DNA from: Fibrobacterota bacterium
GTDB lineage: Bacteria; Fibrobacterota; Fibrobacteria; UBA11236
Assembly: GCA_028287505.1 (NCBI GenBank)
Contig: JAQBPN010000070.1
Location: 3,671-67,670, forward strand
Direction: 5' to 3'
Length of the DNA stretch: 64,000 bases
The translations under genes were made by a program, and so were the position numbers. Positions 5,102-39,493 of the stretch are shown here, one piece after another; positions within the stretch are counted from its first letter, which is position 1; each line of letters begins with the position of its first letter. The notes below the pieces were generated by a model. That model had not been told where the DNA came from. It saw nothing but the letters and a program-made list of their open reading frames with translations, and did not search any database.

Positions 5102-5128
5102 AACCGGGCCCGGAAATCCGCGAGCCGA

Positions 5129-7429: not shown

Positions 7430-7487
7430 GCTCGTTTCTTTCCGGAAAAAAATCGTCCTGGTTAAACATAGCCAAGTGGGGCCGGTT

Positions 7488-13046: not shown

Positions 13047-13120
13047 GCGGGTGTGGCCAAACTGGATAAGGCATCTGACTACGAATCAGAAGACTCCTGG
13101 TTCGACTCCAGGCACTCGCA
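13047..13120 (+). tRNA. tRNA-Arg (anticodon ACG)
   Basis: Manual cloverleaf fold of GCGGGTGTGGCCAAACTGGATAAGGCATCTGACTACGAATCAGAAGACTCCTGGTTCGACTCCAGGCACTCGCA. The 7-bp acceptor stem includes one G-U pair; the T-arm is CCTGG/TTCGACT/CCAGG; the anticodon stem is TCTGA/TCAGA with loop CTACGAA, giving ACG. No encoded CCA. Coordinates are accurate to about ±1. Confidence 0.85.
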
Positions 13121-13202
13121 CTTTTCTCCCCCCTAAGTCGACTTGAAATGGACCCGGACGGGTCCAGATGAAAACGGATCCCGCAGGATCCACTAGAACT
13201 CT

Positions 13203-16759: not shown

Positions 16760-18139
<1,380 letters not shown>

Positions 18140-18240
18140 TTATATTTTTACGCGGTTCTCCCTCACGGAGGGACCGACTGGATGGGTGAATTTCCCCTCC
18201 ATTTGCAAAGCCTGGATTTGCAGAAAGCCTGATTCCCCCT

Positions 18241-20088: not shown

Positions 20089-20089
20089 C

Positions 20090-21310: not shown

Positions 21311-21337
21311 CCGGTCCGACTACCTGGAGGTTCGACC

Positions 21338-22624
21338 ATGAAAAACAAACTGGACAAGAATTCAAAACTCCCTTCCGGCAAATCCAAGGAAGCCTCCTCC
21401 TCGGATGCCAAGTCGAAAGGCAAGCCGGCCAAACCGGTCCCTAAAAGTCCACCTCCCGCTTCAGCGAAAAAATCCAAACCCATAGGGGATTCGAAGCCGT
21501 CCAAGGCCTCGCCCGAATCCAAGTCTCCTGCCCAGCCGGCCAAGGCCGGAAAGGCCGAGAGCGGGTCCATAAGCGGCAAATCCGCCAAGTCCCCGTCCCA
21601 GGCCAACCGGGAAACAGCGGCCCCCGTTTCCAAGCGTCCCGCTGCCGGAAAGACCACCGCGCGCGCGCGGGGCAAGGCGGGCTCCGCCGATTCCGCCGAA
21701 GAATTGAGCCTGGAAGAGTTCGCCATTTCCCTCATCAAACCCGGGGAAACCAAGGAACGCATCTGGCGCACCAAGAGCTTCCAACAGCATCCCGCCCAAC
21801 GGGAGTTCGGCTTTCCCGATGTCGCTCCCGAGTTGCCGGGCCAGTACAGCCAGCCCAAATTGGTGCTGATGCCCAAGGATCCGGAATACATGTTCTGCTA
21901 CTGGGAATTGACTCCAACCTTGATAGAGGAAAAGGAACGGGAGAAGCTGGCTACCGGAAACTACCGGGAAACCCTCAAGATCAATTGGGAATCCAAGTCG
22001 CTTTTCGAACCCAACTTCACCTTCATCCCCGTTTTCTTCTGGGCCCGTAAATGGTATTTCGGCGTTCCCCAGGTGGGCCAGCGGTATCAGGTGGAACTGG
22101 GATGGCTTTCGGACAGCGGGCATTTCATTTCCATCATCCGGTCCAACCTCTCGGAATTGCCGGAAAGCTGGGCGGCCACCCAAAAACGCCTCGCCGAACA
22201 GGGCGAAGTGCTGGCCTACTCTTCCAGCCATACCAAGACCCTGGGCAGCTCCGAGCACTTGGTGGTCGAGGACATCCGCTCCTTCGTTCCGGAATGGAAC
22301 CTCAGTTCGGAAAGCATGAGCTCCTCTTCCTGGTCCCGCGGGGTATCCGGGGAAACAGCCCAGGCTTCTCCCCAACAGTCCGCCCCGGCTCCCAAGGCCT
22401 CCAAGCCTCGGCCGGCGTCACCGAAAGCCCGCCTGGAAGTCTCCGGCAAGGTCCTGCCCGGCACCCAGGTCTTCGTCAGCGGCAATGCGGTATCCACCAA
22501 CGCCCAAGGCTATTTCAAGACGGAATTCCCATATAACAAGGACACCCTGAACCTGGAGCTCACGTCCCGTTCGGGCGCGAGCCGCTCCTTTACCTACGAT
22601 CTCAAGGAGTTGGTTCTGAACTGA
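21338..22624 (+). CDS. DUF4912 domain protein with a Lys/Pro/Ser/Ala-rich N-terminal low-complexity region
   Basis: The core MFCYWELTP...WYFGVPQVGQRYQVELGW is characteristic of DUF4912, a family usually encoded next to GH57 enzymes. The first about 120 aa are K/P/S/A-rich. The stop overlaps the GH57 start (TGATG). Confidence 0.7.
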   Translation: MKNKLDKNSKLPSGKSKEASSSDAKSKGKPAKPVPKSPPPASAKKSKPIGDSKPSKASPESKSPAQPAKAGKAESGSISGKSAKSPSQANRETAAPVSKRPAAGKTTARARGKAGSADSAEELSLEEFAISLIKPGETKERIWRTKSFQQHPAQREFGFPDVAPELPGQYSQPKLVLMPKDPEYMFCYWELTPTLIEEKEREKLATGNYRETLKINWESKSLFEPNFTFIPVFFWARKWYFGVPQVGQRYQVELGWLSDSGHFISIIRSNLSELPESWAATQKRLAEQGEVLAYSSSHTKTLGSSEHLVVEDIRSFVPEWNLSSESMSSSSWSRGVSGETAQASPQQSAPAPKASKPRPASPKARLEVSGKVLPGTQVFVSGNAVSTNAQGYFKTEFPYNKDTLNLELTSRSGASRSFTYDLKELVLN

Positions 22625-24195
22625 TGGGTTACCTGAACTTCGTTCTGCACGCCCATCTGCCTTACGTCCGACATCCCGAACACGCCCGCTTCCTCGAAGA
22701 AGATTGGTTCTTCGAGGCCATAACGGAAACCTACATCCCGCTCCTCCAGGAGTTCGAGGCCCTGGCCAAGGATCGGCTTCCCTTCAAGATCACCATGAGC
22801 CTCACGCCGCCCTTGTGCGAGATGCTCGCGGATGAGCTGCTGCAAACGCGCTACATCAACCACATCAACCGGTTGCGCGAATTGGCGGAGAAGGAATGCA
22901 CCCGCACCAAGAACGATCCCGCCTTCTGCTACCTGGCGGCCATGTACCGCAATCTTTTCGAGAAGTGCCACAAGATCTTCAACGGATATGATCGCAACCT
23001 GCTGAACGGTTTCCGGAAATTCCAGAAATCGGGCAACCTGGAAATCATCACCTGCGGCGCGACCCATGGATTCCTTCCCAATCTCAGGATTTCCCCCCGC
23101 ACGGTGGAAGCGCAATTGGCCGTGGCGGTTGGCAATTATTGGAAGCATTTCGGCCAGGAGCCCTGGGGCATCTGGCTGGGCGAGTGCGGGTACTATCGCG
23201 GCCTGGACAAACTCATCAAGGAGTCCGGTCTCCGGTATTTCTTCGTGGATACCCACGGCATCCTGCAAGGGGATCCTCCTTCGCCAAAGGGAAACTACGC
23301 CCCCATCGAAACGCCCAACGGCGCGTTCGCGTTCGCGCGCGATCAGGAATCCTCGAAAGCCGTCTGGTCCGCCGAGGAAGGCTATCCCGGGGACTTCCGC
23401 TACCGCGAATTCTACCGGGATATCGGATTCGATCTGGACATGAAATACATCGGCCCCTACATCCATCCCATGGGGCTGCGCATCAACACCGGAATCAAAT
23501 ACTTCCGCATCACCGGCAAGGGCAACTACAAGGAACCCTACGTGGAGGATTGGGCCAAGCAGGCCACCGGGGAGCATGCGGAAAATTTCATCTTCAACCG
23601 CGACAAGCAGGACGAATGGCTTTCGGGCCGCCTTGATACGCCGGCCTGCATCGTTTGCCCCTATGACGCCGAATTGTTCGGCCACTGGTGGTATGAAGGC
23701 CCCATGTTCCTGGGCAAGGTGATGCGCAAGGTGCTCACGGAAAACAACCACCGCGTGCAGTTGTCCACCCCGCGCGATTACCTGATGATGCACAAGGATG
23801 CGCCCCGATCGGATCCGGCCTTTTCCTCCTGGGGAGCCGGCGGCTATGCCGACGTGTGGTTGAACGGCAGCAATGATTGGATCTACCCCCATCTCCACAA
23901 GATCGGGGACCTGATGCACGAAGTGGCGGGACTCCCGGCCGGCGGAGATCAGGACCGCCGGGCCCGCAATCAGATGGCCCGGGAACTGCTGCTGGCGCAA
24001 TCGTCGGATTGGGCCTTCATCATGAAAACCGGGACCATGGTCGATTACGCCGTCAAACGGACCAAGGTCCACGTGCACAACTGCCTGGAACTGTACCGCC
24101 AAATCCGCACAGGCTCCATTTACGAACCCTTCCTCCAGAACCTGGAGTCGACGGACAACATCTTCCCTGAAATCGATTACAAGGTCTACGCGTAG
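22624..24195 (+). CDS. Glycoside hydrolase family 57 (1,4-alpha-glucan branching enzyme-like)
   Basis: N-terminal GYLNFVLHAHLPYVRHPE (GH57 signature); 523 aa; translationally coupled to the upstream DUF4912 gene. Confidence 0.88.
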   Translation: MGYLNFVLHAHLPYVRHPEHARFLEEDWFFEAITETYIPLLQEFEALAKDRLPFKITMSLTPPLCEMLADELLQTRYINHINRLRELAEKECTRTKNDPAFCYLAAMYRNLFEKCHKIFNGYDRNLLNGFRKFQKSGNLEIITCGATHGFLPNLRISPRTVEAQLAVAVGNYWKHFGQEPWGIWLGECGYYRGLDKLIKESGLRYFFVDTHGILQGDPPSPKGNYAPIETPNGAFAFARDQESSKAVWSAEEGYPGDFRYREFYRDIGFDLDMKYIGPYIHPMGLRINTGIKYFRITGKGNYKEPYVEDWAKQATGEHAENFIFNRDKQDEWLSGRLDTPACIVCPYDAELFGHWWYEGPMFLGKVMRKVLTENNHRVQLSTPRDYLMMHKDAPRSDPAFSSWGAGGYADVWLNGSNDWIYPHLHKIGDLMHEVAGLPAGGDQDRRARNQMARELLLAQSSDWAFIMKTGTMVDYAVKRTKVHVHNCLELYRQIRTGSIYEPFLQNLESTDNIFPEIDYKVYA

Positions 24196-24622
24196 AGTAG
24201 ACCCGTTTATGCGTAAGCATAAACCCGTCTACGCGTAGCCTCTCCGCACCTATTCGGAAATGTGATTTTTGTCCCGATTTATGTTGGCTTCCAACAGGCC
24301 GGATCCAGGCGGAATCTTTATAGATTTTGATTGCCGTTCCGATTGGGCGGACAACCGCCGGTGCGGAAAAAGTTTCGGGCACGGGACTGAAATACCGCCG
24401 TAACCACCGCGAAATGCGGTGAAACCGGTGTCCCGCGGTTCCGTGCGCGGGACGGATGCGTTGGGGTTTCCTAACGCATTTCCGATTTCCTGCCGTTGGA
24501 TTTTTTTCCCGATTTTGGCTTTATCGGGGTGTTTGGCCGGAAAAAAACAAGACGAATCCCCAAGCCACAGGTTCAGGCCGGAATTATTATAAGCCTGTAC
24601 CGGGGGAGATGGAGGCGATTCC

Positions 24623-24928
24623 GTGGGGAATATCAGCGCAATGCTGCTCATCTTGGTCTTCCTCGTCATCGGGGTGACCCTGGCGATTCTTTTCCTGGCC
24701 GTGCTCCGGGAAACCCTGTTCTGGTATTGGCGCTCCAAAGGCGTGATGCAGGAACCGGAAGATATTCTCAACCGTCCCCACGAAACCGCCCTCATCATCC
24801 GCAAGAGCATCGCAGGTATGAAGTCCGGATTGGCCCCGGGGGCGAATACCAGGACCCCGACGGCGAAATCAATCGCGGCGGAAAATGCCGCGGCGCCGCA
24901 TCCGGGTTTCAGCGACCAAAACCCGTAA
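24623..24928 (+). CDS. Small hypothetical membrane protein
   Basis: One strong TM helix (ISAMLLILVFLVIGVTLAILFLAVL); 101 aa; no homology recognised. Confidence 0.3.
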   Translation: MGNISAMLLILVFLVIGVTLAILFLAVLRETLFWYWRSKGVMQEPEDILNRPHETALIIRKSIAGMKSGLAPGANTRTPTAKSIAAENAAAPHPGFSDQNP

Positions 24929-24942
24929 ACCTTCCCCGACCG

Positions 24943-26526
24943 CTATTTCCGCAAAAGATTGTGGACCCGGGTCATAAGATCATAGGGAGAAAAAGGCGTG
25001 ACCAGGTAATCGTCCGCGCCCAACTGGAATCCCCGCGCCAAGGCCTGATCGGCACCCAATGACGTAATCATCAGCACGGGCACCCGGTTCCCCCGCCAGC
25101 TGGAGCGCAGATCCGTGAGCAGGCTCCGTCCCTGGGACGCCTCCTGTTTCAGGTCCAGGATCCAAAGGGCGCAAGGCGTGGCCAGGGCCGCACGCAAGGC
25201 CGAAGCGCCATCGCGGCAATGCACCACCTCGAAACCTTCCCGGTCCAGACTGTTGGAAACGATTGAGGCGACCTGATCGTCGTCCTCGGCCAAAAGGATT
25301 TTCTGCGTCTCCACCTTGGTCTGATCGGCTTCGGAAACCAAACGCGCGCGGCCGCCGGTCTTGGCCAGGTAGAGGTAGCGATCCGCCTCGGCCATGGCCT
25401 TCTCCACGGTGGAATCATGGAGCACGGAAACCAGGCCCGCGGAAAATGTCAGGGGAACCGGGCGGCCGTCCTGGGTGCGGAAAGGGATGGAAGCCAGGGT
25501 GGAGAACATTTTTTCCACGGCGAAGCGCGCGCCCGGCAGATTGGTGTTGGGAAGCAGCAGGGAGAATTCGTCCCCTCCCCATCGGGCCAGGAAATCGGAA
25601 CGCCGCAGGGCGTCCGCGAAAGCCCGGGCGGCATGGCGCAAAGCGGCATCGCCGGCCACATGGCCCAGGTGATCGTTGATGCGCTTGAGCATGTCGAAAT
25701 CCAGCAAGGCCAGGGAGGTGGGTTCCTTTTTCCGCGCGGCCAGGGCCACCGCGCGGTGGAAGCCTTCGCAAAAGGCCGCGCGATTGGGCAATCCCGTGAG
25801 CGCGTCCTGCCGCGCCTCGCGGCGATGCTCGATGGACCGGTGCAGGCGCGCGGAGACGGCGGCCTTGAGGACTTCCGGGGCCAGGGGTTTCTCGAAATAG
25901 GCATCGGCGCCAAGCGCGAAACATTCCGTCTTGGGCTGAGGTCCGCCGATTCCGGAAAGCACTATCACCGGGACCCCCGACGTGGCCGATCGTTCGCGCA
26001 GGAGCATCAGGAAGTTCCGGCCATCCGTGTCCGGCAGGGAAAGGTCCAGGATGATGAGCGAGAACTGCCTGTCCTCCAGCACCGCCAAGGCTTCGCCCGC
26101 GCTGCCCAGGGCCGTAATCTCCCGATCGGAACCGGAGAGGATTGTCTCCAGCAACCGGCACATCTGCGCGTCGTGTTCGATGATGAGGATGCCGGGAAGA
26201 TCCCCCGGACCCAGCGCCGCGCTGACCTTGATCAATTCCGAGAGCAGGCGGTCCAGGCAATAAGCCAGCTCTTCCGGACGGGACTGCTCCACGGCGCGGG
26301 CGGATTCCCCCAAGGAATGGAATCCGTAGCTGTTGGCCGAACCGCGCAGGCTGTGCGCGATGCGCCGGACGGAATCCGTGCCGTCCGGGGATTTCGCGAG
26401 ACCCTTCCTCGCGGTCTTGAGCGCGTCTATGCTGGCCGGGAGACTCCCGCGATACCACTTCCTTAAATCTTCCATAACTCTCCATGCCCATTGACCGTGC
26501 TCATTCGCCTTCTCCCTCCGCGCCAT
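24943..26526 (-). CDS. Hpt-REC-GGDEF-REC multidomain protein (phosphorelay-regulated diguanylate cyclase)
   Basis: Hpt motif RIAHSLRGSANSYGFHSLGE; first receiver (LIILDLSLPD); GGDEF domain with intact RWGGDEFSLLLP; second receiver at the C-terminus (ILDLKQE...LGADDYLVTPF). Confidence 0.85.
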   Translation of the reverse strand: MARREKANEHGQWAWRVMEDLRKWYRGSLPASIDALKTARKGLAKSPDGTDSVRRIAHSLRGSANSYGFHSLGESARAVEQSRPEELAYCLDRLLSELIKVSAALGPGDLPGILIIEHDAQMCRLLETILSGSDREITALGSAGEALAVLEDRQFSLIILDLSLPDTDGRNFLMLLRERSATSGVPVIVLSGIGGPQPKTECFALGADAYFEKPLAPEVLKAAVSARLHRSIEHRREARQDALTGLPNRAAFCEGFHRAVALAARKKEPTSLALLDFDMLKRINDHLGHVAGDAALRHAARAFADALRRSDFLARWGGDEFSLLLPNTNLPGARFAVEKMFSTLASIPFRTQDGRPVPLTFSAGLVSVLHDSTVEKAMAEADRYLYLAKTGGRARLVSEADQTKVETQKILLAEDDDQVASIVSNSLDREGFEVVHCRDGASALRAALATPCALWILDLKQEASQGRSLLTDLRSSWRGNRVPVLMITSLGADQALARGFQLGADDYLVTPFSPYDLMTRVHNLLRK

Positions 26527-27661
26527 CGTCGATGTCCTGGAAGCCCAGGTGGCGGAAAGCGAATTCGCCGCGGATCCCGAAGCCGGTATAGGTCTGGTTG
26601 TCGACTTGTCCGTATAGCATCGTCCCGGCCACGCGTATGCGATGGTATTCCCAGATCCTGAGGCCCATAGTCAGCCCCGCTTCCGTTTCATGCCCCACCG
26701 CGGTTCCGTTCCAGCTGAAAATCGCCCTGGGCGCCACGTGCAGGCGCCAGAGAATGTCCGGATCAGGGGCCCAGGCCACGGACATTTCCAGGTAGGCCCT
26801 TTGCAGGTTGTCGTCCGTGTCCGGGGCCTCCAGATCGGATTTGAGCTTGAGGCGCCGGTTGGCGTCCGGCAACTTTATCGCCGCGCCTAATCCCGTTTGC
26901 CAGGCCACCCGGCGGAGCGATTTGAGATATTCGTAACGAAACTGATAAAGATCCCCTTCGTTGTGGGCGGGGATGCGGATATCATTGCCCTCATCGCCAT
27001 AAATGGAGGCCTTGGCGTCCCAGCGGTGGCGCGCCGCCCGCGCCTGGTATATGGCCCGTCCGGAGAAATCGAAATAGGATGCCGGAAAGAAGGCTTTGTC
27101 CTTGATCAGCCGGAAAAGCGCGGGACGGGAATATCCGAATCCTCCTATCAAGGTCCAATTGGTCCAGGCGTAACGGCCGAAAACCGCCGCTTGCAAAGCC
27201 CGCGGGGACAGGAAGGAGGAAAAGGGCATGGGACTGTACCCGTTCATGGCCTGGTACAGCGCCAGGGAATCCGCCAAGGCGATGGTGTCGCCGAAGATGG
27301 GGATGTTGCCGCCGAAGGAGACGAAGAGATAATCCCGCAGCACTTCGGCGCTGGCCTGCAGCTTCAGGGCCAAGGGCTCCCGATAGGGCTGGGAGAATCC
27401 GGGGGCCTGGGTCTCCCGGGAACGCAGCCCGATATGGAACCAGGCGAAGGTGAGCGATTGGATGGTGAATCCCTGGTAGAGGCTCGCCTGATAGGGATAA
27501 GGCTGGCCGGTCACGGCAGGCGAGTTGAGATAGAACACGTCGATGGAACTGTGGGCGATCCACGGGAACCCGTGTTCCTGGCTGATCTCGGCGGTATCGG
27601 TCTTTTGCGCCAGCGCGGAGACGGCGGACAGCAGGACCGGGATCAGGAAACGCAGCGTCAT
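26501..27661 (-). CDS. Outer-membrane beta-barrel protein, uncharacterised
   Basis: Start at MTLRFLIPVLLSAVSALAQ (signal peptide), which is Met28 of ORF 26501..27742. Beta-strand periodicity rich in Y/W/F. Overlaps the upstream repeat-protein gene by 4 nt and the downstream GGDEF gene by 26 nt. Confidence 0.5.
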   Translation of the reverse strand: MTLRFLIPVLLSAVSALAQKTDTAEISQEHGFPWIAHSSIDVFYLNSPAVTGQPYPYQASLYQGFTIQSLTFAWFHIGLRSRETQAPGFSQPYREPLALKLQASAEVLRDYLFVSFGGNIPIFGDTIALADSLALYQAMNGYSPMPFSSFLSPRALQAAVFGRYAWTNWTLIGGFGYSRPALFRLIKDKAFFPASYFDFSGRAIYQARAARHRWDAKASIYGDEGNDIRIPAHNEGDLYQFRYEYLKSLRRVAWQTGLGAAIKLPDANRRLKLKSDLEAPDTDDNLQRAYLEMSVAWAPDPDILWRLHVAPRAIFSWNGTAVGHETEAGLTMGLRIWEYHRIRVAGTMLYGQVDNQTYTGFGIRGEFAFRHLGFQDIDDGAEGEGE

Positions 27662-29364
27662 GGGCCGAGACGGTCCGGGCTGCAGAGGTAACATCCGGAT
27701 TCCTGGGCGCCGGAACGGAACGTGCCGCCGAACTCGCCCCAACCCTCCTTCTCCGAAGAAAGCACGTCCATCTCCATGTCCATTTCCCTGGATTCGGAGA
27801 CGATGAAAGACTGCATGGATTTGTCCGCCGTGCGCAACGCCGAGCCGGCTCCGAAAAACTTGCCGGGAAGGAACATGGCGAAGGGCCGCGTGCCCCGGTT
27901 GGGATCCACGGTTTCGAATTCACGCAGGATGCGATCGCCACGCAATGGATTGAGCCTTTCCTGCTTGAGCGAGTAGCCGCGCGTCCGCACCGTGCGCATG
28001 GCTCCGACCGCCACGGCTTCCTGGGAACTCAAGAGCGGTTGCGCGGACATGCTTCCTTTGACCACCTCCATGGTGGAAATGCTGCCTTCGTGGCGGAACA
28101 ACACGGCTTGCGGCTGACCGCGCGCGATAAAGGAGGGAGTGAGCACCACGCTGTTGTCCTGGAAGGCGAGCAGGCCTATTTTGCGCCAGATGCTGTTGCT
28201 GTCCAGCGAGGCTATTTCCCCCAATTTGCGCCAGATGAGATTGTTGCTGTCCAGGGAAGAAACCTGGCCCAGGCCTTTCCAGACCAGGTTGGAACTGTCC
28301 AGCGCGGCCACCTGCGTCAATGTGCGCAACAGCAGATTGCTGCTGTCCAATGCCGTCACTTTGCCGAAGGTCTTGAACAGCAGATTGTTCGAGTCCATCG
28401 ACGTGACCTTCTGCAGGTTTTTGAGGATGAGGTTCTGGCTGTCGAGCGAGGTAACCTTGCCGAGACCCTTCCAGAGCAGGTTGCTGGTATCCAGGGCCGC
28501 CACCTTGGTCAGGGTCTTCCAGATCAGATTGCTTTGGTTCAAGGTGGTGGCCTGTCTCAGGCGCCCCTCCACCGAAGAGGAATCCACGCCCTTGATGATC
28601 CCCAGGGTCCCCTGGTTGAGCTGCACCACCTTGGGGAGCAGATAGGTGTAGGAAGAATGCGGGTACAGAACGTAGTGGATATTCTCCATGCTGATGACGA
28701 TGAGCCGCGGCGCGTCCCCGATCACCAGGGTGGTCCCCAAGGGCACTTCCGAGATGGATCCCTTGTGGATGATGGCGAGTCCGCGGATGAGCATGGCGGG
28801 GTTGGCCGGAACCTTCAGCTTCAGGACTCCCAGCGATGGAGGGTCCGCTTTTTTGGCCAGGAAGGAGGCCTCGAAAGGGCGCGCCACGGCCTGGGCGAAC
28901 AGCTTGCGCTTCTCCCCCGCTTCCAGCAAAACATGCAATGTATCGAGAACGCGGTTTTTCGCGGAGAACATGTCCACCGCTTCCGGCCGGCAGCGGTATT
29001 CTTCCTTCAATTCCGCGCACTCGACGATCAGGCCCCACTTCACCTGGTTTCCGTTCATGGGCGCGAGCAGGGCCGGGTCGGCGATCTTGCCTTTGGCATG
29101 CGCCGAATCCAGGGCGTTGCCGTTCTTCTTGCGGAGATCGAAGACCAGCAAGGCGGTGTCATCCGCCAAGGCCTGGCCCATATCGCGCGAAAGCCCTTCG
29201 TTATAAGCGGAGTCGCGGCCTTCCACGTAGGCGCCCAATACGCTGACGGCGACCTTGCCCCACGCGGAACCCAGGAAGACGGATAGGATGAGGCAAACGT
29301 TCCGCAAGGCGGAACGACGGTTTCGCGTTGCGGGACACGACGGCCCGGCCGGGGAAGCATTCAC
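27658..29364 (-). CDS. Secreted protein with 7-8 tandem 16-residue repeats (consensus NLxWKxLGKVTSLDSx); LRR-like but shorter than canonical LRR units
   Basis: N-terminal hydrophobic signal (NVCLILSVFLGSAWG). Residues about 279-406 are exact 16-aa periodic repeats, mirrored by a 48-bp DNA periodicity. The alternative-frame ORF 28139..28645 is also periodic. Confidence 0.6.
   Translation of the reverse strand: MNASPAGPSCPATRNRRSALRNVCLILSVFLGSAWGKVAVSVLGAYVEGRDSAYNEGLSRDMGQALADDTALLVFDLRKKNGNALDSAHAKGKIADPALLAPMNGNQVKWGLIVECAELKEEYRCRPEAVDMFSAKNRVLDTLHVLLEAGEKRKLFAQAVARPFEASFLAKKADPPSLGVLKLKVPANPAMLIRGLAIIHKGSISEVPLGTTLVIGDAPRLIVISMENIHYVLYPHSSYTYLLPKVVQLNQGTLGIIKGVDSSSVEGRLRQATTLNQSNLIWKTLTKVAALDTSNLLWKGLGKVTSLDSQNLILKNLQKVTSMDSNNLLFKTFGKVTALDSSNLLLRTLTQVAALDSSNLVWKGLGQVSSLDSNNLIWRKLGEIASLDSNSIWRKIGLLAFQDNSVVLTPSFIARGQPQAVLFRHEGSISTMEVVKGSMSAQPLLSSQEAVAVGAMRTVRTRGYSLKQERLNPLRGDRILREFETVDPNRGTRPFAMFLPGKFFGAGSALRTADKSMQSFIVSESREMDMEMDVLSSEKEGWGEFGGTFRSGAQESGCYLCSPDRLGP
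28147..28530. repeat. 48-bp tandem DNA repeats (about 8 copies) inside the repeat-protein CDS
   Basis: Periodicity is visible in both the real frame and the alternative-frame translations (…SSEAISPNLRQMRLLLSREETWPRP…). Confidence 0.65.
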
Positions 29365-29581
29365 CCCGTTATTATACCCTTTCCCAAGGGCTGGAACGCA
29401 ACCGGAGAGTTATTCGGCGATACAGTCCGTCGTAAGGTTATCCGGATCCCGATGGCCCCGGAATGCGGCGCGCCGGATCGCGCCATGAAATTGTTTCGGG
29501 GCATGGCCCCATTAGATAGATTCTATCCGTTCCGGATATCACAGAAATGTTCCGCGAGCAACGGTCCCCCGGAGAATTTCC

Positions 29582-31657
29582 ATGGCCGGTTCAAAAACGC
29601 CCGGTTCCAGATTGGCTCTGCCGCTTTCCCTGCTGGCATTCTGCGCCATCCACCGGGAAGCCGGGGCCGGAACCGAAGGGGATCCGCAAGGTCCGATTTT
29701 CCGGAAGCCGAGTTTCTCCCAAATGGAACGCGTCGTCGTGGTCTCCAAAAAACCGGAAAGCATCCTGGAAGCGCCCGGTACGGTTTACGTCATCACGGAT
29801 GAGGATATCGAAAGGTTCGGCTGGCGGGACATGCGGGAGATCCTATGGTCCATCCCGAACATGGATCAGGTATGGCAATTATACTGGGCGAACGGAGGAC
29901 AAAGGGGATTCACGGGGAATTCCGCGGGCACGTTGCTTCTCATCGACGGCAGGGAGGTCCAGAACCTGCTGGCCGACGAGGCCATGATGCAGAACTTTCC
30001 CGCGCACCGGATCAAACGCGTCGAAGTGCTGCAGGGGCCGGGTTCGGCTCTTTACGGAAGCAACGCGAGCGAAGGCGTGATCAACATCGTGACCAAGCTG
30101 GCCGATCCGCTTCAAGAAGACGCCTCCCAGGTGAGCTTCCTTGCCGGGGAAACGGACTCCCGGGGAGCCTACGCCTTCAGCAGGAAAAACGGCGCAAACA
30201 CGTCCTTGGGCGTGAGCGGGTCCTATTTCACCAGCCTGCAGAATTGGGGTCCCCTGCGTGATTTCATCGCCGATGACGGCCGCTTCTCCCGCCGTCCCTC
30301 CGTGGACTCCGTCCGCGACAAGGAATCCGATAAAGTGGTATTCCCGGTCGAAAGCGAAACCTTCGATTTCTTCGCTTCCAGCCCCCACGTCTATGCCGGA
30401 GCGAACTATTTCCGCGAAGAGAATACCGAAGGTATGGAAATGGTCCGCGTCCGGTTGGGGGAACGCACCGGTTACCGCCTGGCCTTCCACGGATTCGCCG
30501 GCGCCAAATATGAGCGCGAAGCACTCCAGGGCTTCGCCGAATACCGGTATAGCCGGGAACGGGACAATTTCCTCGGAGCGGACCAGACGGTGATACCGTT
30601 GCCCAATCGGGTCTTCCGGCCGGAACGCCATCGGCTGAAAGCGCAGGGAACCTACCGTTTCCCGAACCAGACCATTGTGTTCGGTTACGACGGGATAATT
30701 CATGAGACCGGGTTCTACGAGGACACCTCGCTGGTGGGAGGGCTGACCTATCCCTCCATTCCCTCCAGGATTTTCCGTACCTATCTGAATTCCGTTTTCG
30801 CCGAGAATACGATATTCCTCCTCGATGGGCGGTTGAAAATCAACGCGGGCCTGCGGGTTGAAAAGCAGAAAGGCATGGATCCGCAGGTGATTCCCCGCTT
30901 GGGTATGGTGCTCCAGGCTTGGCGGGGAGCGGCCGTCAAACTTCTCTATGGGCACGGTGTCCGGGCTCCCGGTCCGTTCGAGCTCAACAATGCAAGGAGC
31001 GCCGGGATTGCCGCATCGGAAGTACCCTCCCGCAAGACCGACGATTTCGAAGTGAATTGGGTCCAGGAATCCGGTTGGGGCGACTGGCGATTCGTAAACA
31101 GCATGTCGGGATACCACATGGTGGCAAACGAAAATTTCCAGCAAGTCCTCGTCCAGGATACCTTCCGGTTGGTCCTGGACGAGGACAAGACGGTGGATGG
31201 GGTCGAAGACCTGCTCCGCATTACCTGGCGCGAAAAGCATGGCGGTTTTCTGGGCGGCCGATGGATCGATCCATCCCGGACGGAAGTGGCCGGGGAGAAA
31301 ATAGTGGCTGACGTGCCCATCGTCCGCGGAAAGGCCGGATTGTATTCGCGATTGCTTCCCTGGATTCTCATCGGCGTGTTCATCGACGCATCGGGAGAGG
31401 TCAAAACGGATGCCAATTCCCCGGATGGAAATTCCGTCGAAGTCCTGACCATTCCCGGTTGGGTGAACACGAATCTCAACCTGCGCCTGGGTGACTTCGA
31501 TCTGGGAAAGCCGGGAGGAGCGAGGCTGGGTTTTTCCACCTTCATCGAGAATGTTTTCGATGAAACCTATTACCACCCCAACCATCGGGGAACGTCTCCC
31601 ATCCAATACATGCAGGCTCCGCGGAACATGCGATTCACCGCGGATATGAAATTCTAA
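29582..31657 (+). CDS. TonB-dependent outer-membrane receptor
   Basis: Signal peptide; plug domain (VVVSKKPESILEAPGTVYVITDEDIERFGWRDMREIL...LQGPGSALYGSNASEGVINIVTK); 22-strand barrel pattern; C-terminal ...RFTADMKF. Confidence 0.85.
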   Translation: MAGSKTPGSRLALPLSLLAFCAIHREAGAGTEGDPQGPIFRKPSFSQMERVVVVSKKPESILEAPGTVYVITDEDIERFGWRDMREILWSIPNMDQVWQLYWANGGQRGFTGNSAGTLLLIDGREVQNLLADEAMMQNFPAHRIKRVEVLQGPGSALYGSNASEGVINIVTKLADPLQEDASQVSFLAGETDSRGAYAFSRKNGANTSLGVSGSYFTSLQNWGPLRDFIADDGRFSRRPSVDSVRDKESDKVVFPVESETFDFFASSPHVYAGANYFREENTEGMEMVRVRLGERTGYRLAFHGFAGAKYEREALQGFAEYRYSRERDNFLGADQTVIPLPNRVFRPERHRLKAQGTYRFPNQTIVFGYDGIIHETGFYEDTSLVGGLTYPSIPSRIFRTYLNSVFAENTIFLLDGRLKINAGLRVEKQKGMDPQVIPRLGMVLQAWRGAAVKLLYGHGVRAPGPFELNNARSAGIAASEVPSRKTDDFEVNWVQESGWGDWRFVNSMSGYHMVANENFQQVLVQDTFRLVLDEDKTVDGVEDLLRITWREKHGGFLGGRWIDPSRTEVAGEKIVADVPIVRGKAGLYSRLLPWILIGVFIDASGEVKTDANSPDGNSVEVLTIPGWVNTNLNLRLGDFDLGKPGGARLGFSTFIENVFDETYYHPNHRGTSPIQYMQAPRNMRFTADMKF

Positions 31658-31674
31658 GGAAGGGATTCCGGCCC

Positions 31675-32253
31675 ATGCTGTCATTTGCCTCCAAAGCCGC
31701 GGTCGCCATGTCCATGCTGATCGCCGGCAGCGGCGCGGCGGTCGCGGAGTCGGCGATTTCGGCCCCGGAATACAATGTCAAGGCCGGGTATCTGTTGCTT
31801 TTCATCCGCTATGTGACATGGCCCGACACCACGTTCGCATCGCCGCAATCCTTCATCATCGTCGGGGTTTTGGGAAGGGATCCATTCGGAAAAGTGCTGG
31901 AAGAAACGTTCGCGGATGCGGCCGGCATGACAGGACGGAAAACGGAAATCCGCCGGGTTTCCGATGTTGCGGGCGCGATGGGATGCCATGTGGTCTTCAT
32001 CAGCGATTTCGAATCCGGCCATACCGCGGAATGGCTGGCGGCATTGCGGGACAAGCCGATTCTTACCGTCACCGAAACCGAAGAAGGTGCGGATGCCGGT
32101 TCGATAATCAATTTCATCAAGGAAGGGAACCGGGTCCGGTTCGAAGTCAACCTGATGGCCGCGCACCGTGTCGGCCTGAAAATCGCATCGCCTGTGCTGG
32201 TGTCCGCGCGGAATGTCGGAAAGCAGGGCGGCAAAGAAGAGGGAAATCCTTGA
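31675..32253 (+). CDS. YfiR-family (DUF4154) periplasmic protein
   Basis: Signal peptide followed by VKAGYLLLFIRYVTWP...HVVFIS...ILTVTETEEGADAGSIINFIKEGNRVRFEVNLMAAHRVGLKIASPVL, typical of YfiR/DUF4154. The stop overlaps the start of the downstream kinase (TGATG). Confidence 0.75.
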   Translation: MLSFASKAAVAMSMLIAGSGAAVAESAISAPEYNVKAGYLLLFIRYVTWPDTTFASPQSFIIVGVLGRDPFGKVLEETFADAAGMTGRKTEIRRVSDVAGAMGCHVVFISDFESGHTAEWLAALRDKPILTVTETEEGADAGSIINFIKEGNRVRFEVNLMAAHRVGLKIASPVLVSARNVGKQGGKEEGNP

Positions 32254-34535
32254 TGGTCTCGATAATGGAAGATCCCGAAGAAGGATGGGGGCGGTTCAGG
32301 AACCTGCCCATCCAGCGGAAACTTTTTTTCACAATCGCTTTGACCCTTGGATTCGCGATCCTGGTGGCCTCGTCCGCTTTGCTCATCTATGAAGCCCGTT
32401 CTTTCCGGCCGCGCACCCTGGAAAAAGCGGAATCCCGGGCCGAAATGCTGGCCGAAATCCTGGTGCCTCCCATGGAATTCGACGACTCCGCCACTTGCGC
32501 CGCCTACCTCCGCACCCTGAGGCATACGCCCGATATATCCAGCGCGGTCCTGTGCGATACCGGAAGGAACGCTATCGCGTCCTATAGCAGGACGGCCGGT
32601 GACCCGTTTCCGCATCGGGTACGGACACTGCCGACGGGGCCGACTTTCGGCCCGCACGAACTCATGTATCTGCTCCCGGTATCCGATCATGGCCATCTGC
32701 TCGGATACCTGGCGCTCAGGGAGGAATTGCCCTCCTTTCTGGAACGCCTGCCCCAATACGGCATCATGCTTTCGGTGATCGCCCTCTCCCTGCTGGCCCT
32801 GGCGGCAATGCTCGCCCTTGTCCTCAAACACACGGTTACCGCCCCCATCGTCGCATTGGCCGGTATCGCCAAAGCGGTCGCGGAAGACAAGGACTACGGG
32901 CAACGAGTCAAGTCGGGAGGGAAGGACGAAGTGGGATCGATGACGGCCGCCTTCAACATGATGCTGGATGCCCTGGAACAACGGGAACATTCGCTGCTCG
33001 AAAGCCGCGCATTGCTCCAATCCGTCATCGACAATTCCATGTCGATTATCTTCGTGAAGGATCCGGAGGGGCGCTACATATTGATCAACCGGCGGTTCGA
33101 GGACATTTTCCACGTTTCCCTCCAATCGGTACGGGGCAGAACCGATCGCGATATTTTTCCCGAAGAATCCGCGGAAGCGTACCGGGCGGGCGATCTGCGC
33201 GCCCTGGCCGGCGGCAGACCCGTTGAGATGGAGGAACAGATTCCGCAGGACGACGGCCGGCATACCTACATCACGGTCAAATATCCCTTGCGCGACGCCG
33301 CCGGAAAGGTCTATGCGGTTTGCGGTATCGCAACGGACATCACCCAGATAAAGAATTATGAGGAACAACTCCGCCAAAGCCAGAAAATGGAGGCGATCGG
33401 CCGCTTGGCGGGCGGCATCTCCCATGACTTCAACAATCTCCTCACGGCCATCAACGGTTACAGCATGATGGCCTTGCAGAGCGTGGAAGCCGCCAATTCC
33501 ATCCATGGATTCCTGGAAGAGATCCTGAAGGCCGGCGAACGGGCCGCCGGCCTTACCCGCCAACTGTTGGCCTACAGCCGTAAGCAGATACTCGAGCCCA
33601 GGATCTGGAACCTCAATGAAATCGTGATGGACATCGAAAAAATGCTCCGACGGCTCATCGGGGAGGATGTCCGGCTGACCACCCGCCTGGCGCCGGATCT
33701 GAAGATGGTAAAGGTCGATCGCGGCCAGTTGGAGCAGATCATCCTGAACCTAGCGCTCAATGCCCGCGATGCGATGACCGGAGGGGGGGAATTGATCGTG
33801 AAAACCGGAAACGCGTTCCTGGATGGGGCCTATGCCGCGACCCACCCTGAAGTGGCCGCGGGTCCATACGTCCAGCTCGAGGTGAGCGATACCGGTTCCG
33901 GCATGAACCGGCAGGTCATGTCGCATCTGTTCGAACCGTTTTTCACCACCAAGGAACCCGGCAAAGGCACGGGGCTCGGGCTGTCCGTGGTGTATGGAAT
34001 CGTACAACAGAGCGGAGGATCCATTTCCGTATCCAGCGAACCCGGGAAGGGGACTACCTTCAGCATCTATCTGCCGACGACGCCCGTCTCCGGGACTTCG
34101 CAACCTGAAGGCGGCAAGCTTCCCGAGGGAGGCGCATTCCGGGGAAAGGAAACCGTGCTTCTGGTGGAAGACGAAGAAGTGGTCCGCAGGTTCACCCGGC
34201 ATATCCTGGAGGCCCAGGGGTACGCCGTTCTGGAAGCCGTCGATGGGGTCAAAGCGCTCGAAGCCATCGCCGGCCACGCCGGCCCGGTGGATTTGATCCT
34301 GTCCGATGTGGTGATGCCCCACATGGGCGGGCCTGAATTGGCCGAACGGTTGCGCAAGGAATCCCGGGACATTCCCATGCTTTTCATTTCGGGCTATGCC
34401 GATGGGGGTGCGGCCAGCTTGGGCCCATTCGCCGACGGAAACGATTTCCTGCAAAAACCGTTTTCCCCCTATAATCTGGCGAAAAAGGTGCGGGAAATCC
34501 TCGACCGGGTCCGAACCAGCGAACCCGAATCATGA
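32253..34535 (+). CDS. Hybrid sensor histidine kinase (TM-periplasmic-TM-HAMP-PAS-HisKA-HATPase-REC)
   Basis: Two TM helices bracket a periplasmic domain of about 150 aa. HAMP; PAS ([25 protein letters not shown]); H-box ([11 protein letters not shown]); N/G boxes; C-terminal receiver ([10 protein letters not shown]...[12 protein letters not shown]). Start is Met146 of ORF 31818..34535. Confidence 0.9.
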
Positions 34536-34557
34536 TTCCGCCGCGCCGGGAGCCCGA

Positions 34558-35946
34558 TCAGGGATGCGCTTCCCAGGCATTCCCCATGGCTACGCGCGCG
34601 CCCAGCCGCTGAAAAGTCCGGTACAGACCGTAGCGCGCCCGATCCAGGAATACGAAGTCCGGGGAGAATTCTATTCCTTTCACGGTCCGGAACAGGCGCC
34701 ATGCCTGGGCCCGGCACTCCTCGAAGTAATCCCCCGCCGCGCCGAAATCGAATGTCGCGACCTGGTACGGGCGGAGCACCCATTCCCCCATGGATCGCAA
34801 ATGCTTTTCCAGATCCGCGAAGTCCTCCCTGCGATCGGTGATGCGCAGGATGCCCAAGGCATCGTACTCCTCCACCAGGGAGTTGGCCGTCCCGGTTCCC
34901 CGGTATCCCTTGGCGTGCATGGCGAAAAGCCGCCGGAGATTGCCACTGAAGCCGGCAGGGAAGGATTTCACGCAGCCGAAATCGAGCATAGCGACGGCGC
35001 CGTCCGCCCGCGCCTTGCCCGGCCCTATCCCGTCCGACCGGGCTGCCCGGAAAAATTCCGGCCGGATGAGGAAATTCCCAGGGTTGGGATCGGCGTTCAA
35101 AGCATGGAGTTCATATACGGATTTCAGATAAACGCTCCAGAGAATGGCCGCCAAAGCGTCCCGCTCCGTCTGTCCCGGCGAACCGGCCAGCCACTCCTGC
35201 AGATGCACGCCATCCATGAAGTCCGTGGCGAGGACGGTCTCGCTGCTGAAGGACCGGTGCACGCGGGGTACGGCCACTTCCGGGATACCCAGGCTTTCCC
35301 GGAACCAATCCGTCCAGCGCGCCTCGTGCCCGTAGGAAAGCTCTTCCACCATGCGTTCCGCGACCTCGGACCAGACCCCCTGCACTTCCTTGAGCCAGGG
35401 CAGATGAGAAGCGAATCCCGCTACCATCGCCAAATCATTCTTGACCGTACGGGCGATGCCCGGATATTGGATCTTGATCGCCAGCCTACGGTCTTCATGG
35501 GTGACGGCAAGGTGCACCTGCCCCAGGCTGGCGGCCGCGAAAGGCGTCTCTGAAAATTCCCTGAAAAGCATTTCCGGCGGCGCGCCCAGGTTGGCGATAA
35601 GGGTCCGGCGCACCAATGCGCGATTCATGGGAGGGGATTGATAGCAGGATTTTGAAAGTTCTTTGCGGAATTCCTCCGGCAGCAGTTCCTCTTCCTGGCT
35701 CAGCATCTGGGCGAGCTTGAGGGGAAGGCCTTTCAGGCGCGCGCAGGCGGCGAAGAATGCTTCCCCGCGCTCCTTCCAGACCTCCTCGGGAGTCCCTTTC
35801 CCCCGGCGCATCGACCGTAGCGCCGAAGTGACTGCCAAGCGCCCGGCCACGCCGGCCCGCGCCAGTTTGGAGAGAGGCATCGCCTTGACTGTCGGCTCCT
35901 TGCCGGGTTTTGCCATGCGGTCCGCATCCTTCGAGGCGCGATCCAT
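34558..35946 (-). CDS. ABC1/UbiB-family atypical protein kinase
   Basis: SLGQVHLAVTHEDRRLAIKIQYPGIARTVKNDLAMV and a downstream HADPNPGNF motif, characteristic of the ABC1/ADCK family. Confidence 0.85.
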   Translation of the reverse strand: MDRASKDADRMAKPGKEPTVKAMPLSKLARAGVAGRLAVTSALRSMRRGKGTPEEVWKERGEAFFAACARLKGLPLKLAQMLSQEEELLPEEFRKELSKSCYQSPPMNRALVRRTLIANLGAPPEMLFREFSETPFAAASLGQVHLAVTHEDRRLAIKIQYPGIARTVKNDLAMVAGFASHLPWLKEVQGVWSEVAERMVEELSYGHEARWTDWFRESLGIPEVAVPRVHRSFSSETVLATDFMDGVHLQEWLAGSPGQTERDALAAILWSVYLKSVYELHALNADPNPGNFLIRPEFFRAARSDGIGPGKARADGAVAMLDFGCVKSFPAGFSGNLRRLFAMHAKGYRGTGTANSLVEEYDALGILRITDRREDFADLEKHLRSMGEWVLRPYQVATFDFGAAGDYFEECRAQAWRLFRTVKGIEFSPDFVFLDRARYGLYRTFQRLGARVAMGNAWEAHP

Positions 35947-36749
35947 CAGGCCTTCCCGCGTTTGGGGACTTTGTCCTTGGGGGAAGCGGATGCGCTGGCC
36001 CGCTTGGACCCTGCGGCGTTTCCCTTTCCCATCCCGCCCAGATTCATGAGCAGGGGCATCAGATGGCGATTGACCAGGAACCCCACCAACTCATCCGCCT
36101 GCCGCAGCAAGGGACCGCCCACCACCGCCGCGAAAAGATTGAGGGTGCGATCGATGAACTGGCTGGTGTCCTCGTGATGCTCGGAATCGTCCTTGAGCCA
36201 ATACATCATCACCCCTATATAATGGCACCAGAGGATTTCTTCGACAATGCCCACCCAGCTTATTTCCGGGACCTCGCCCTTCGCCTGCGCCTCTTTCAGG
36301 AAGGACCCCGCGGTTTCCAGGTAGGCTTTGCGCATGGCGGCCACTTCCGACCACATCAAGCTGGCGGCCACGAAGGTGGGATGGAAAGTCTTTTCCAGGA
36401 AATCCTTTTCGCCTTCATATTGGCCGATTTGGAATTCCAGCAGCGCCTGGAGTTTTTCGACCAGGGAATAGGAGGATTTTTTGGCCAGGCCTTCGCCTTC
36501 CCGGCGCAGGCGCTCCATCTTCTGGACGTAATAGGCCAGCAGGATCTTTTCCTTGGACGCGAAGTATTTGTAAATGGCGCCGTCGCTGAGTCCCGCCGCG
36601 CGGGCCACGTCGCGGAGTGTCACCTCGGAGTAGCCTTTGGCGCGTACAAGCTTCACGAATGCATCGATGAAGCGTTGATGATGTTCTTGTTTTTTTTCCC
36701 GGGAGACTTTCACGTTCGGCCCCTTTTCCCTGGCTATAAATCTTGGCAT
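35946..36749 (-). CDS. TetR/AcrR-family transcriptional regulator
   Basis: N-terminal HTH (VTLRDVARAAGLSDGAIYKYFASKEKIL). Overlaps the ABC1 kinase gene start/stop, so the two genes look like an operon. Confidence 0.85.
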   Translation of the reverse strand: MPRFIAREKGPNVKVSREKKQEHHQRFIDAFVKLVRAKGYSEVTLRDVARAAGLSDGAIYKYFASKEKILLAYYVQKMERLRREGEGLAKKSSYSLVEKLQALLEFQIGQYEGEKDFLEKTFHPTFVAASLMWSEVAAMRKAYLETAGSFLKEAQAKGEVPEISWVGIVEEILWCHYIGVMMYWLKDDSEHHEDTSQFIDRTLNLFAAVVGGPLLRQADELVGFLVNRHLMPLLMNLGGMGKGNAAGSKRASASASPKDKVPKRGKA

Positions 36750-36762
36750 CCATAAAAAGTCG

Positions 36763-36798
36763 ATTATTGCACTTTAATGGATACTTATTTTCAATAAT
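36763..36798. promoter_or_regulatory. AT-rich inverted repeat (ATTATTG-N22-CAATAAT) just upstream of the TetR start: candidate operator/promoter
   Basis: Seen in sequence; the only AT-rich stretch in this region; sits about 15-50 bp upstream of the tetR start codon. Confidence 0.3.
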
Positions 36799-36802
36799 AA
36801 AC

Positions 36803-36828
36803 AAAAAAAAGCCATCCCAAAGGATGGC
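36803..36828 (-). terminator. Intrinsic terminator for the rho-proC transcript: hairpin gccatcccaaaggatggc followed by U8 on the minus strand
   Basis: Perfect 7-bp GC-rich stem, 4-nt loop, then an A8 run on the plus strand (U8 in the minus-strand RNA), about 190 nt downstream of proC. Confidence 0.6.
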
Positions 36829-37015
36829 CCGGGACAGGTAATCAATCTTCCGGCATCGGCGAAATTCACCGAAGTTTCGAAACATACTTTCGATTCCGAA
36901 GCGGGTCCGTCCGGGAAGCACCATAAAAAATGGTTGGTAAAGGGAGCCGGTGGAAGCCCTACCGGGCGGGCTCGGAGGAAACCGGCGTTTCTCTCGGAGA
37001 GAAACGCGGGTATTT

Positions 37016-37831
37016 CTATTGGCCCGAGAGGGCCTTGGAGCGCGCTACCGCGGCTTCCACCGCGGCGATGAGAATGCCTTTGAAGCCCGCAGTCTCCAGG
37101 ACGTGCAGACCATGAATGGTGGTTCCGCCGGGCGAACTCACCTTCGCCGACCAGGAGGAAGGCGACTCTTTGCCGCTTTCCAGGAGCTTGAGGGCGCCCT
37201 TGGCGGTTTGCAGGACCAGCGAGGTGGCGGTATCCCGCGCCAGGCCGGCTTTGACTCCCGCCAGGATCAGGCCTTCCAGGAATTCGAAAACATAGGCCGG
37301 CCCGCTGCCGGAAAGCCCGGTGACGGCGTCCATCTGATGGCTGGTAACGCGTACGGTACGTCCCGCCGCCTTGAAGATATGCTCGGCCAGCAGCAGCGTG
37401 GCTTCCGAGTTTCCGTCCGTCTCGATGGCGGTGGCGCCCTCCCCCACCGACAAGGGCAGGTTGGGCATAACGCGCACAATCTGATAGTCTTCGGGGAAAT
37501 GCGAGCGGATGTTCTCGCTGGTGACGCCCGCCATCACGCTCAGGACCACGCGCTCCTTGGGACCACTCCGGGGCTTCAGCCCGGGGGCGATATGATGGAA
37601 AATCTGGGGCTTCACGGCCAGGATCAGGACATCGCATCGATCGGGAAGGTCATGGGCCTGGACCATGGTCTGCACCCCCAGCTCGCGCTTGAGGGCCTCC
37701 ATGGTCGGGGCCAGGGTATCGTAGACGTAGACGTCTTTCGCCGCCGCCGTCCCCGAAGAAACCAGGGCGCGCACCAGGGCCGCGCCCATGTTGCCGCATC
37801 CGAGGACGCCGATGTTCTGGAAATCAACCAT
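37016..37831 (-). CDS. proC: Pyrroline-5-carboxylate reductase
   Basis: N-terminal Rossmann [12 protein letters not shown]; C-terminal P5CR dimerisation motifs ([14 protein letters not shown]); 271 aa. Confidence 0.9.
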
Positions 37832-39245: not shown

Positions 39246-39493
39246 GGCGGCTTTCGGTTTCGTGGCCAAAATGGATCTCCTTAAATGCGGTGAATCCGGG
39301 GAGGGAAGGGTTTGGTGGAAATGATGGGATGTGTAACATCCGGAAAGATATAAAAAGGCTTCCAAAGGGAAGTACCCGTGGCGACGGGCTACCTAATTAT
39401 TATAACAATTTTACCGGGAAATGGCTCCGGTATCCGGCGGAAATCCCCATTTTCCGGGAGCCGGACACCCTTATTTGTATATTTCCGCACCGC

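Follow-up and report, generated by a model that had tools for sequence, protein, structure and literature searches.

Two signalling modules back to back in a Fibrobacterota genome: a receptor/YfiR-like/kinase cassette inserted beside a Hpt-REC-GGDEF-REC cyclase operon

In the YfiBNR system (TpbB) of Pseudomonas aeruginosa and Escherichia coli, a YfiR-family protein is encoded beside an inner-membrane sensor of the CHASE8-HAMP type and an outer-membrane partner, the presumed logic being the gating of a transmembrane signalling protein by a repressor or adaptor in the periplasm. The periplasmic domain of YfiN has been classed as CHASE8 (PMC8085984), and the fold of YfiR is periplasmic-binding-protein-like (PMC4655355). 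The same combination is found in the island described here, which lies at positions 24943-34535 of a 64-kb stretch of contig JAQBPN010000070.1 from a Fibrobacterota bacterium (hereafter the window) and comprises, according to the open reading frame (ORF) listing and Pfam, six genes in two divergent groups. The plus-strand group encodes a TonB-dependent receptor (TBDR), a YfiR-like periplasmic protein and a hybrid histidine kinase (HK); the minus-strand group encodes a secreted repeat protein (REP), an outer-membrane beta-barrel protein (OMP) and a diguanylate cyclase of Hpt-REC-GGDEF-REC architecture. The best overall explanation, to which a probability of roughly 0.8 is given, is that the island consists of two evolutionarily independent signalling modules put back to back by insertion.

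The plus-strand group departs from YfiBNR in several respects: the output of its sensor is PAS-HisKA-HATPase-REC, whereas that of YfiN is GGDEF; its outer-membrane partner is a TBDR, where YfiBNR has the OmpA/Pal-like lipoprotein YfiB; and its YfiR-like protein has one cysteine, without the cysteine pair of solved YfiR. Nearer to it stands a trio curated in NCBIfam (NF053590, NF053591 and NF053592), with the same three genes in the same order, although the HK and the receptor of the window fall below the respective cutoffs. The first-pass annotation of this DNA took the gene set as not yet described as a unit, and this is only partly true, since NCBIfam has dedicated models for the plus trio; in the literature, no paper was found on this system or gene set and no experimental study of the cassette, the sole experimental note found on the receptor family being a sevenfold rise of TOL_0244 on n-C28 alkane in a proteomics study (PMC6304351). 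The FecA/FecR/FecI systems also encode a TonB-dependent receptor with an envelope-spanning signalling partner, but the receptor here has no N-terminal signalling domain, there is no anti-sigma factor or extracytoplasmic function (ECF) sigma factor, and a YfiR-like go-between and a kinase output are present instead. The window TBDR was considered as a FecA-type signalling receptor and rejected, as Pfam finds no N-terminal signalling (STN) domain in it.

With regard to the cyclase, CfcA/CfcR of Pseudomonas putida and the PleD and WspR proteins likewise place a receiver-controlled GGDEF domain downstream of a (hybrid) histidine kinase, with GGDEF and I-site intact. PleD differs in its REC-REC-GGDEF order, and the window cyclase scores 200 bits against the NF007135 model, whose cutoff is 474. 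No paper was found on the Hpt-REC-GGDEF architecture.

Insertion of three genes beside an older operon

The REP, OMP and cyclase genes are kept in all six related lineages compared (L002, L005, L008, L010, L175 and L177), whose cyclase orthologs are 65-86% identical to that of the window and come from different metagenome-assembled genomes (MAGs) and metagenomes. The downstream synteny (a small ORF, GH57, DUF4912, two unknowns and PALP) is also conserved in the six, and none of them (0/6) has the TBDR, YfiR-like and HK genes at this locus. Upstream, the relatives carry rho and proC and, in some of them, TetR, ABC1 and a cyclase-like gene as well, all co-directional and running straight into the REP gene, which in the gene tables of close relatives is directly abutted by the ABC1 and TetR genes. 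The same flank genes were placed in the window at 34558-39269 by tblastn and blastn. Moreover, window positions 34569 and 29405 correspond in blastn to positions 6978 and 7036 of L008; because these junction points are only 58 bp apart in the relative, the window holds 5,164 extra bases, which contain exactly the three genes of the plus strand. The minus operon is preceded by an element shared with relatives lacking the cassette, as seen from the junction alignment and blastn.

In a neighbour-joining (NJ) tree built on 2,799 concatenated columns from six flanking proteins, the window is sister to L175, inside a clade without the cassette. The flanking proteins have orthologs that are 83-96% identical, compared with 62% for the best non-self full-length homolog of the HK among 5.8 billion proteins, and the best 80 matches of the YfiR-like protein in GTDB species representatives include 0 Fibrobacterota loci, the best of them being 46% identical. 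The trio thus entered as an insertion, and the two modules are independent of each other; in all probability, judging from synteny and the tree, the event was recent and specific to this lineage, beside an older cyclase operon. This does not agree with the first-pass annotation, in which the six genes were seen as a co-functioning unit: the pairing is found in 0 of the 6 related lineages and in 0 of 84 other copies of the cassette, so that the co-occurrence check put forward with that annotation speaks against such a unit.

The insertion site is itself variable. The gene content of the proC/REP gap (window 34558-37016), compared with the same six lineages, differs in every relative, the variants being an empty gap, TetR-ABC1, a cyclase-like gene plus TetR-ABC1, and fragmented TetR/ABC1 (L175), so that the gap can be regarded as a hotspot of accessory genes. 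Since the cassette lies in such a general hotspot, its neighbourhood with the operon is less of a coincidence.

The sensor cassette and its outputs

The TBDR of the window is recognised by Pfam through its Plug (residues 62-166) and TonB barrel domains; against NF053590 (TOL_0244 family TonB-dependent receptor) it reaches 92 bits, for a cutoff of 645, and in the plug region only. The YfiR-like protein matches Pfam DUF4154/YfiR (E 1e-37), exceeds the cutoff of NF053591 (TOL_0243 family YfiR-like periplasmic protein; 142 bits versus 125) and aligns over its full length with the P. aeruginosa YfiR structures (PDB 4zhy, E 3.6e-6). In the HK, Pfam finds CHASE8 (38 bits, cutoff 27) and HAMP (36 bits), as well as PAS, HisKA, HATPase_c and REC. 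The protein remains below the cutoff of NF053592 (sensor histidine kinase, YfiR-like protein-associated), with 150 bits against 194 (E 7e-44, residues 20-243), and well below that of the CckA equivalog (449 bits against 1000), its kinase core alone being CckA-like. Its phospho-sites are intact, with GGISHDFNN as H-box and, in the receiver, the stretch LILSDVVMP and both the Asp and the Lys. Judged from these scores, the trio is a divergent relative of the NCBIfam-curated one and not an equivalog.

A scan of GTDB with the YfiR-like alignment gave the best 80 loci, from many phyla, with hosts in the Steroidobacteraceae, Opitutaceae, Pirellulales, Gemmatimonadales, several Acidobacteriota and Sphingomonadales, and further ones in the Rhodocyclaceae, Spirochaetaceae, Myxococcota, Elusimicrobiota and Geobacter. 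The order of receptor, YfiR-like protein and sensor recurs in L014, L015 and L017 and in the majority of the 80 loci: the YfiR-like gene is immediately preceded by a TBDR gene in 53 of the 68 loci with enough upstream DNA, and immediately followed by a CHASE8/HAMP sensor in 71 of 74. In addition, four homologs of the HK, 42-62% identical, are encoded with these partners in unrelated surroundings. On this gene-neighbourhood basis, the TBDR/YfiR-like/sensor trio is a self-contained and widespread cassette.

The 71 sensors comprise 62 kinases and 8 methyl-accepting chemotaxis proteins (MCPs); 56 of the 71 have REC and 24 a fused C-terminal Hpt, and GGDEF, the output of YfiN, is found in 0/71. As an MCP replaces the kinase in 8 of the 71, the output of the cassette is modular. 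By the locus list, the MCP-type sensors (L048, L066, L072, L073, L087, L091, L094 and others) appear to belong mainly to Spirochaetaceae and Myxococcota, and the receptor gene is often absent from their loci. Most of the cassette kinases that end in REC, like the window HK, have no Hpt within 10 kb. Other partners are seen as well: in Gemmatimonadales, the receptor gene is preceded by one for a single-domain receiver; L030 has a free Hpt together with another hybrid kinase and a pair of single receivers; and L016 has a REC-LytTR regulator.

A different arrangement is seen in about 25 loci of the Zoogloea/Rhodocyclaceae type (within L031-L088, for example L052 7918-15396 and L042 7825-15413), where the TBDR and YfiR-like genes come first and are followed by a CHASE8-HAMP-HisKA-HATPase-REC-Hpt kinase and a co-directional REC-PAS-GGDEF-EAL gene. 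As far as the domain content tells, this block is a complete relay from the envelope to cyclic di-GMP (c-di-GMP) encoded in cis; being of one clade, these loci represent roughly one evolutionary event. They share with the window the TBDR, the YfiR-like protein, a CHASE8-HAMP kinase with REC and a path to a c-di-GMP enzyme through Hpt and REC; however, their Hpt is fused to the kinase, and the kinase gene is followed directly by the co-directional gene of the regulator, whereas in the window the Hpt belongs to the cyclase of a divergent, unrelated ancestral operon. A HAMP-PAS-GGDEF-EAL gene lies some 2 kb upstream of the Zoogloea/Rhodocyclaceae loci, on the other strand. Furthermore, the kinase is missing in Zoogloea ramigera NBRC 15342 and in one Zoogloea MAG (L034 9827-13238 and L025 9128-13173), where the Hpt-containing piece alone is left between the YfiR-like and REC-PAS-GGDEF-EAL genes, in what looks like an internal deletion.

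By analogy with YfiBNR, we infer a mechanism in which the periplasmic YfiR-like protein would gate the CHASE8-HAMP sensor and the TBDR would take the outer-membrane role of YfiB, either by sequestering the YfiR-like protein or by delivering or importing a ligand for YfiR-like binding. The CckA-like HK would then phosphorylate its own receiver, the next acceptor not being encoded in the cassette.

The cyclase operon and its possible wiring

In the cyclase, Pfam identifies an Hpt domain at 33.4 bits (E 5e-8) for a cutoff of 24.6, two regions matching Response_reg and a GGDEF domain (E 3e-37), and the active site RWGGDEF is intact, with the RxxD I-site, RRSD, five residues upstream; the N-terminal Hpt and the intact GGDEF of the first-pass annotation are thereby borne out. 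In the family alignment, the Hpt histidine (His41) is nearly invariant, and Asp144 and Lys196 of the first receiver (REC1) and the RxxD motif are invariant. The second receiver (REC2) has Thr where the conserved Lys is expected and a non-canonical loop, and probably serves as an adaptor instead of accepting a phosphoryl group. About 100 homologs share the length of 510 residues. The Hpt-REC-GGDEF-REC family is large in Fibrobacterota and extends, at 44-50% identity, to Planctomycetota, Fidelibacterota and Gemmatimonadota. In some orthologs, 52-60% identical, the active site is degenerate (DADKF, GEDEF and GGGEF, in an alignment that includes P0045, P0047, P0053 and P0056), P0017, 74% identical to the window cyclase, has GGDEL, and in P0047 a Lys replaces the Hpt histidine, so that the enzymatic and relay functions of the family are not uniformly kept. 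The GS of the HxxKGS motif drifts within the Fibrobacteria ortholog group.

A second Hpt-REC-GGDEF-REC paralog (P0058, 51% identical) is present in Fibrobacteria, at L178 9473-12081 (GCA_028287465.1), on the contig of the ortholog P0007. Two small Hpt-like proteins flank it, of which one exceeds the Pfam cutoff and the other does not; the first of the two flanking proteins has, as judged by eye, Gln at the phospho-His position. A scan of metagenome contigs with the cyclase alignment returned mostly unrelated receiver proteins, the useful ones among the matches listed being L095 and L096. In the latter (3404-8197), a 40%-identical relative of the cyclase is found in an operon composed of a single REC, a PAS-PAS-HisKA-HATPase kinase that is non-hybrid, the Hpt-REC-GGDEF-REC gene and another single REC. 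Such a make-up resembles a relay in which a free receiver donates to the Hpt, and it points to input in trans, from a receiver, for the family. In the mechanism proposed for the window cyclase, the Hpt histidine would accordingly be phosphorylated by such a receiver and pass the phosphoryl group to the REC1 Asp, switching on the I-site-regulated GGDEF as in PleD or WspR, with the degenerate REC2 serving as adaptor; in the relatives without the cassette, the phosphoryl group must come from some kinase other than the window HK.

The two partners of the cyclase are envelope proteins. REP consists of nine 16-residue repeats (LDSSNLxWKxLGxVxS), its N-terminal part opening with a VSVLGAYVEGRDS motif and its C-terminal end carrying an invariant GCYLCSPDRLGP. 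Aligned over 7 lineages it shows 79% column identity, a conservation that exceeds that of its operon partners, and the family is tiny, with 35 matching representative clusters among 1.84 billion proteins. No match to REP was found in Pfam, NCBIfam or, by profile search, PDB sequences; its single-sequence AlphaFold2 (AF2) model was unusable (pLDDT 30). The distant large matches, kelch/Rax2 propeller repeat proteins, were set aside as uninformative. OMP has no Pfam or NCBIfam match, is modelled as a beta-barrel (AF2 pLDDT 85) and belongs to a family specific to Fibrobacterota. It bears a possible resemblance to the exopolysaccharide export barrels PgaA, BcsC and PelB; porins of that type have a 16-stranded barrel fused to periplasmic TPR repeats and a synthase encoded alongside. 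The nine repeats and the barrel model confirm the labels of repeat protein and OMP, so that the domain anatomy proposed at first for all six genes is upheld in every call by Pfam, the repeats or the model. The cyclase and OMP have identical matches among the proteins of a Fibrobacteres MAG. From its distribution among the lineages compared, the minus operon appears as an ancestral one, restricted to Fibrobacterota.

The history of two independent modules has to be weighed against others. Were the six genes an ancestral unit from which each relative had lost the TBDR/YfiR-like/HK half, the commonness of deletions and the variability of the proC-REP region would be in keeping with it; on the NJ tree, however, at least 4 independent and precise losses would be needed, and one gain is preferred because the window nests among lineages without the cassette. 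The distance of the nearest HK homolog compared with those of the flank, and the lack of Fibrobacterota among the YfiR-like matches given above, make the ancestral unit very improbable. Still more improbable is an assembly chimera of two organisms, a suspicion raised by the origin of the sequence from a MAG: a separate Logan assembly (L001, SRR13312974) is collinear with the window over 12,025 bp, with 24 mismatches and no gaps (99.8% identical), and, as it covers both junctions of the plus trio in the same gene order, the arrangement is not an assembly artefact. In addition, GC and GC at third codon positions (GC3) of the insert are within the range of the flanks.

The alternative of more weight accepts the insertion and supposes that, in this strain, the receiver of the HK has since come to donate to the Hpt of the neighbouring cyclase, in four steps over two divergent operons, so that c-di-GMP synthesis would be driven by a signal from the outer membrane or periplasm; it is considered unlikely, yet the evidence is not one-sided. 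All four phospho-acceptors are present (HK His, HK REC Asp, Hpt His and REC1 Asp), which makes a transfer from HK His to HK REC Asp, Hpt His, REC Asp and GGDEF chemically possible, and the HK ends in REC without an Hpt. No second Hpt was detected in the 64-kb window by Hpt profiles, whose sensitivity is limited for very divergent Hpt; the profile was built from the cyclase family plus C-terminal Hpt domains. The earlier view of the cyclase Hpt as the only one nearby is therefore maintained within that limit. The Rhodocyclaceae cassettes encode the same relay in cis (HK-REC-Hpt followed by REC-PAS-GGDEF-EAL), the L096 operon points to receiver input in trans for the cyclase family, and control of a GGDEF regulator by a hybrid kinase is known from CfcA/CfcR (PMC6849547). 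On the other hand, there is no co-inheritance, the cassette being in 0/6 related lineages and the cyclase beside 0/84 other cassettes, so that the cyclase family functions without the window HK and the cassette without the cyclase. Furthermore, a close relative has at least one further canonical Hpt (that of the paralog cyclase) and the two small Hpt-like proteins, for which reason the window Hpt is not the sole candidate genome-wide; the insertion site is a generic variable spot; and the adjacency was chosen post hoc by a pattern-seeking reader. That the window HK feeds the neighbouring Hpt is thus doubtful, and the creation by the insertion of a new, split four-step relay, with an imported TBDR/YfiR-gated kinase using the resident cyclase Hpt, can be held only tentatively. 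Of the complete phosphorelay that was first read from the island, the presence of all phospho-sites stands, together with the in-cis precedent in Rhodocyclaceae; its operation between this HK and this cyclase is plausible but less likely than not.

Against the history of two independent modules, the following points must be counted: neither direct or inverted repeats flanking the insertion nor integrase, transposase or other mobile-element genes were found, and the GC3 difference is weak (0.69-0.73 versus 0.73-0.84). The insertion landed by one of the few Hpt genes of the genome and brought an HK without its own Hpt, which could reflect selection for co-localisation. Finally, in Rhodocyclaceae an Hpt hard-wires the cassette to an enzyme of c-di-GMP turnover, so that the coupling of the cassette to c-di-GMP may be seen as a recurrent theme.

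Layout of the island, surroundings and significance

The features of the island are collected in Table 1. The junctions are as tight as first described, with 4-bp overlaps between REP and OMP and between the YfiR-like and HK genes, and gaps of 17 bp between TBDR and YfiR-like and of 25 bp between OMP and cyclase. The starts of HK (32250), OMP (27661) and REP (near 29307) were corrected with respect to the first-pass annotation, and the most likely start of the cyclase is 26475, which gives the length found in its homologs.

Table 1. Coordinates of the island and its immediate flank (window positions)
Feature	Position	Strand	Basis or remark
Hpt-REC-GGDEF-REC diguanylate cyclase, 510 aa	24943..26475	-	Pfam; ORF reaches 26526
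Cyclase Hpt	26224-26466	-	Pfam
Cyclase REC1	25855-26190	-	Pfam
Cyclase GGDEF	25345-25812	-	Pfam
Cyclase REC2	~24952-25299	-	Pfam
Outer-membrane beta-barrel protein (OMP), 386 aa, signal peptide	26501..27661	-	
Secreted repeat protein (REP), ~549 aa	27658..29307	-	ORF reaches 29364; start near 29307
Conserved upstream element of the minus operon, TTGCGT ... TATAAT	29365..29445	-	Junction alignment and blastn collinearity
Lineage-specific insertion, ~5.2 kb, content exactly the TBDR, YfiR-like and HK genes	29406..34568	.	blastn
TonB-dependent receptor (TBDR), 691 aa, Plug and barrel	29582..31657	+	Pfam
YfiR-like periplasmic protein, 192 aa, signal peptide, single Cys	31675..32253	+	Pfam DUF4154
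Hybrid histidine kinase (HK), 761 aa, without Hpt	32250..34535	+	Pfam
HK CHASE8, between two transmembrane segments	32412-32717		
HK HAMP	32823-32981		
HK PAS	33030-33347		
HK HisKA	33399-33587		
HK HATPase	33717-34082		
HK REC	34155-34493		
ABC1 kinase-like gene and TetR gene, ancestral flank	34558..36749	-	Gene tables of relatives, blastn collinearity

Beyond the HK and the cyclase, profiles for Hpt, kinase, receiver and GGDEF domains found no two-component genes in the 64-kb window, and scans for sigma-70 promoters and terminators gave no signal above shuffled sequence. The sole RNA gene of the window is a tRNA-Arg (ACG) at 13047-13121 (ARAGORN; Rfam at gathering thresholds). A block convergent to the cyclase, at 16763-24928, is kept in all relatives and comprises a PALP enzyme, two unknown proteins (615 and 406 aa), DUF4912, a GH57 branching-enzyme-like protein and a conserved 101-aa ORF; through this GH57 block, alpha-glucan metabolism may possibly be tied to the cyclase operon.

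The island illustrates that neatly complementary domains in adjacent operons are no evidence that these form a unit, since synteny here shows a recent, lineage-specific juxtaposition: in what reads as a complete phosphorelay, two modules of known kinds stand side by side by chance, and they may or may not be wired to each other. The TBDR/YfiR-like/CHASE8 cassette, which ranges over Gemmatimonadota, Acidobacteriota, Verrucomicrobiota, Planctomycetota, Myxococcota, Spirochaetota and several Pseudomonadota, has interchangeable outputs (a kinase, a kinase plus Hpt with a c-di-GMP regulator, or a chemoreceptor) and carries the YfiBNR principle over to TonB-dependent receptors and to non-GGDEF outputs. 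Fibrobacteria, for their part, conserve a short operon in which an unusual Hpt-REC-GGDEF-REC cyclase is coupled with two envelope proteins, one of them possibly export-barrel-like. If the split relay were true, it would place an ancestral, envelope- or exopolysaccharide-like operon of Fibrobacteria under an imported outer-membrane sensor, and would be a natural case of plug-and-play rewiring through a promiscuous Hpt.

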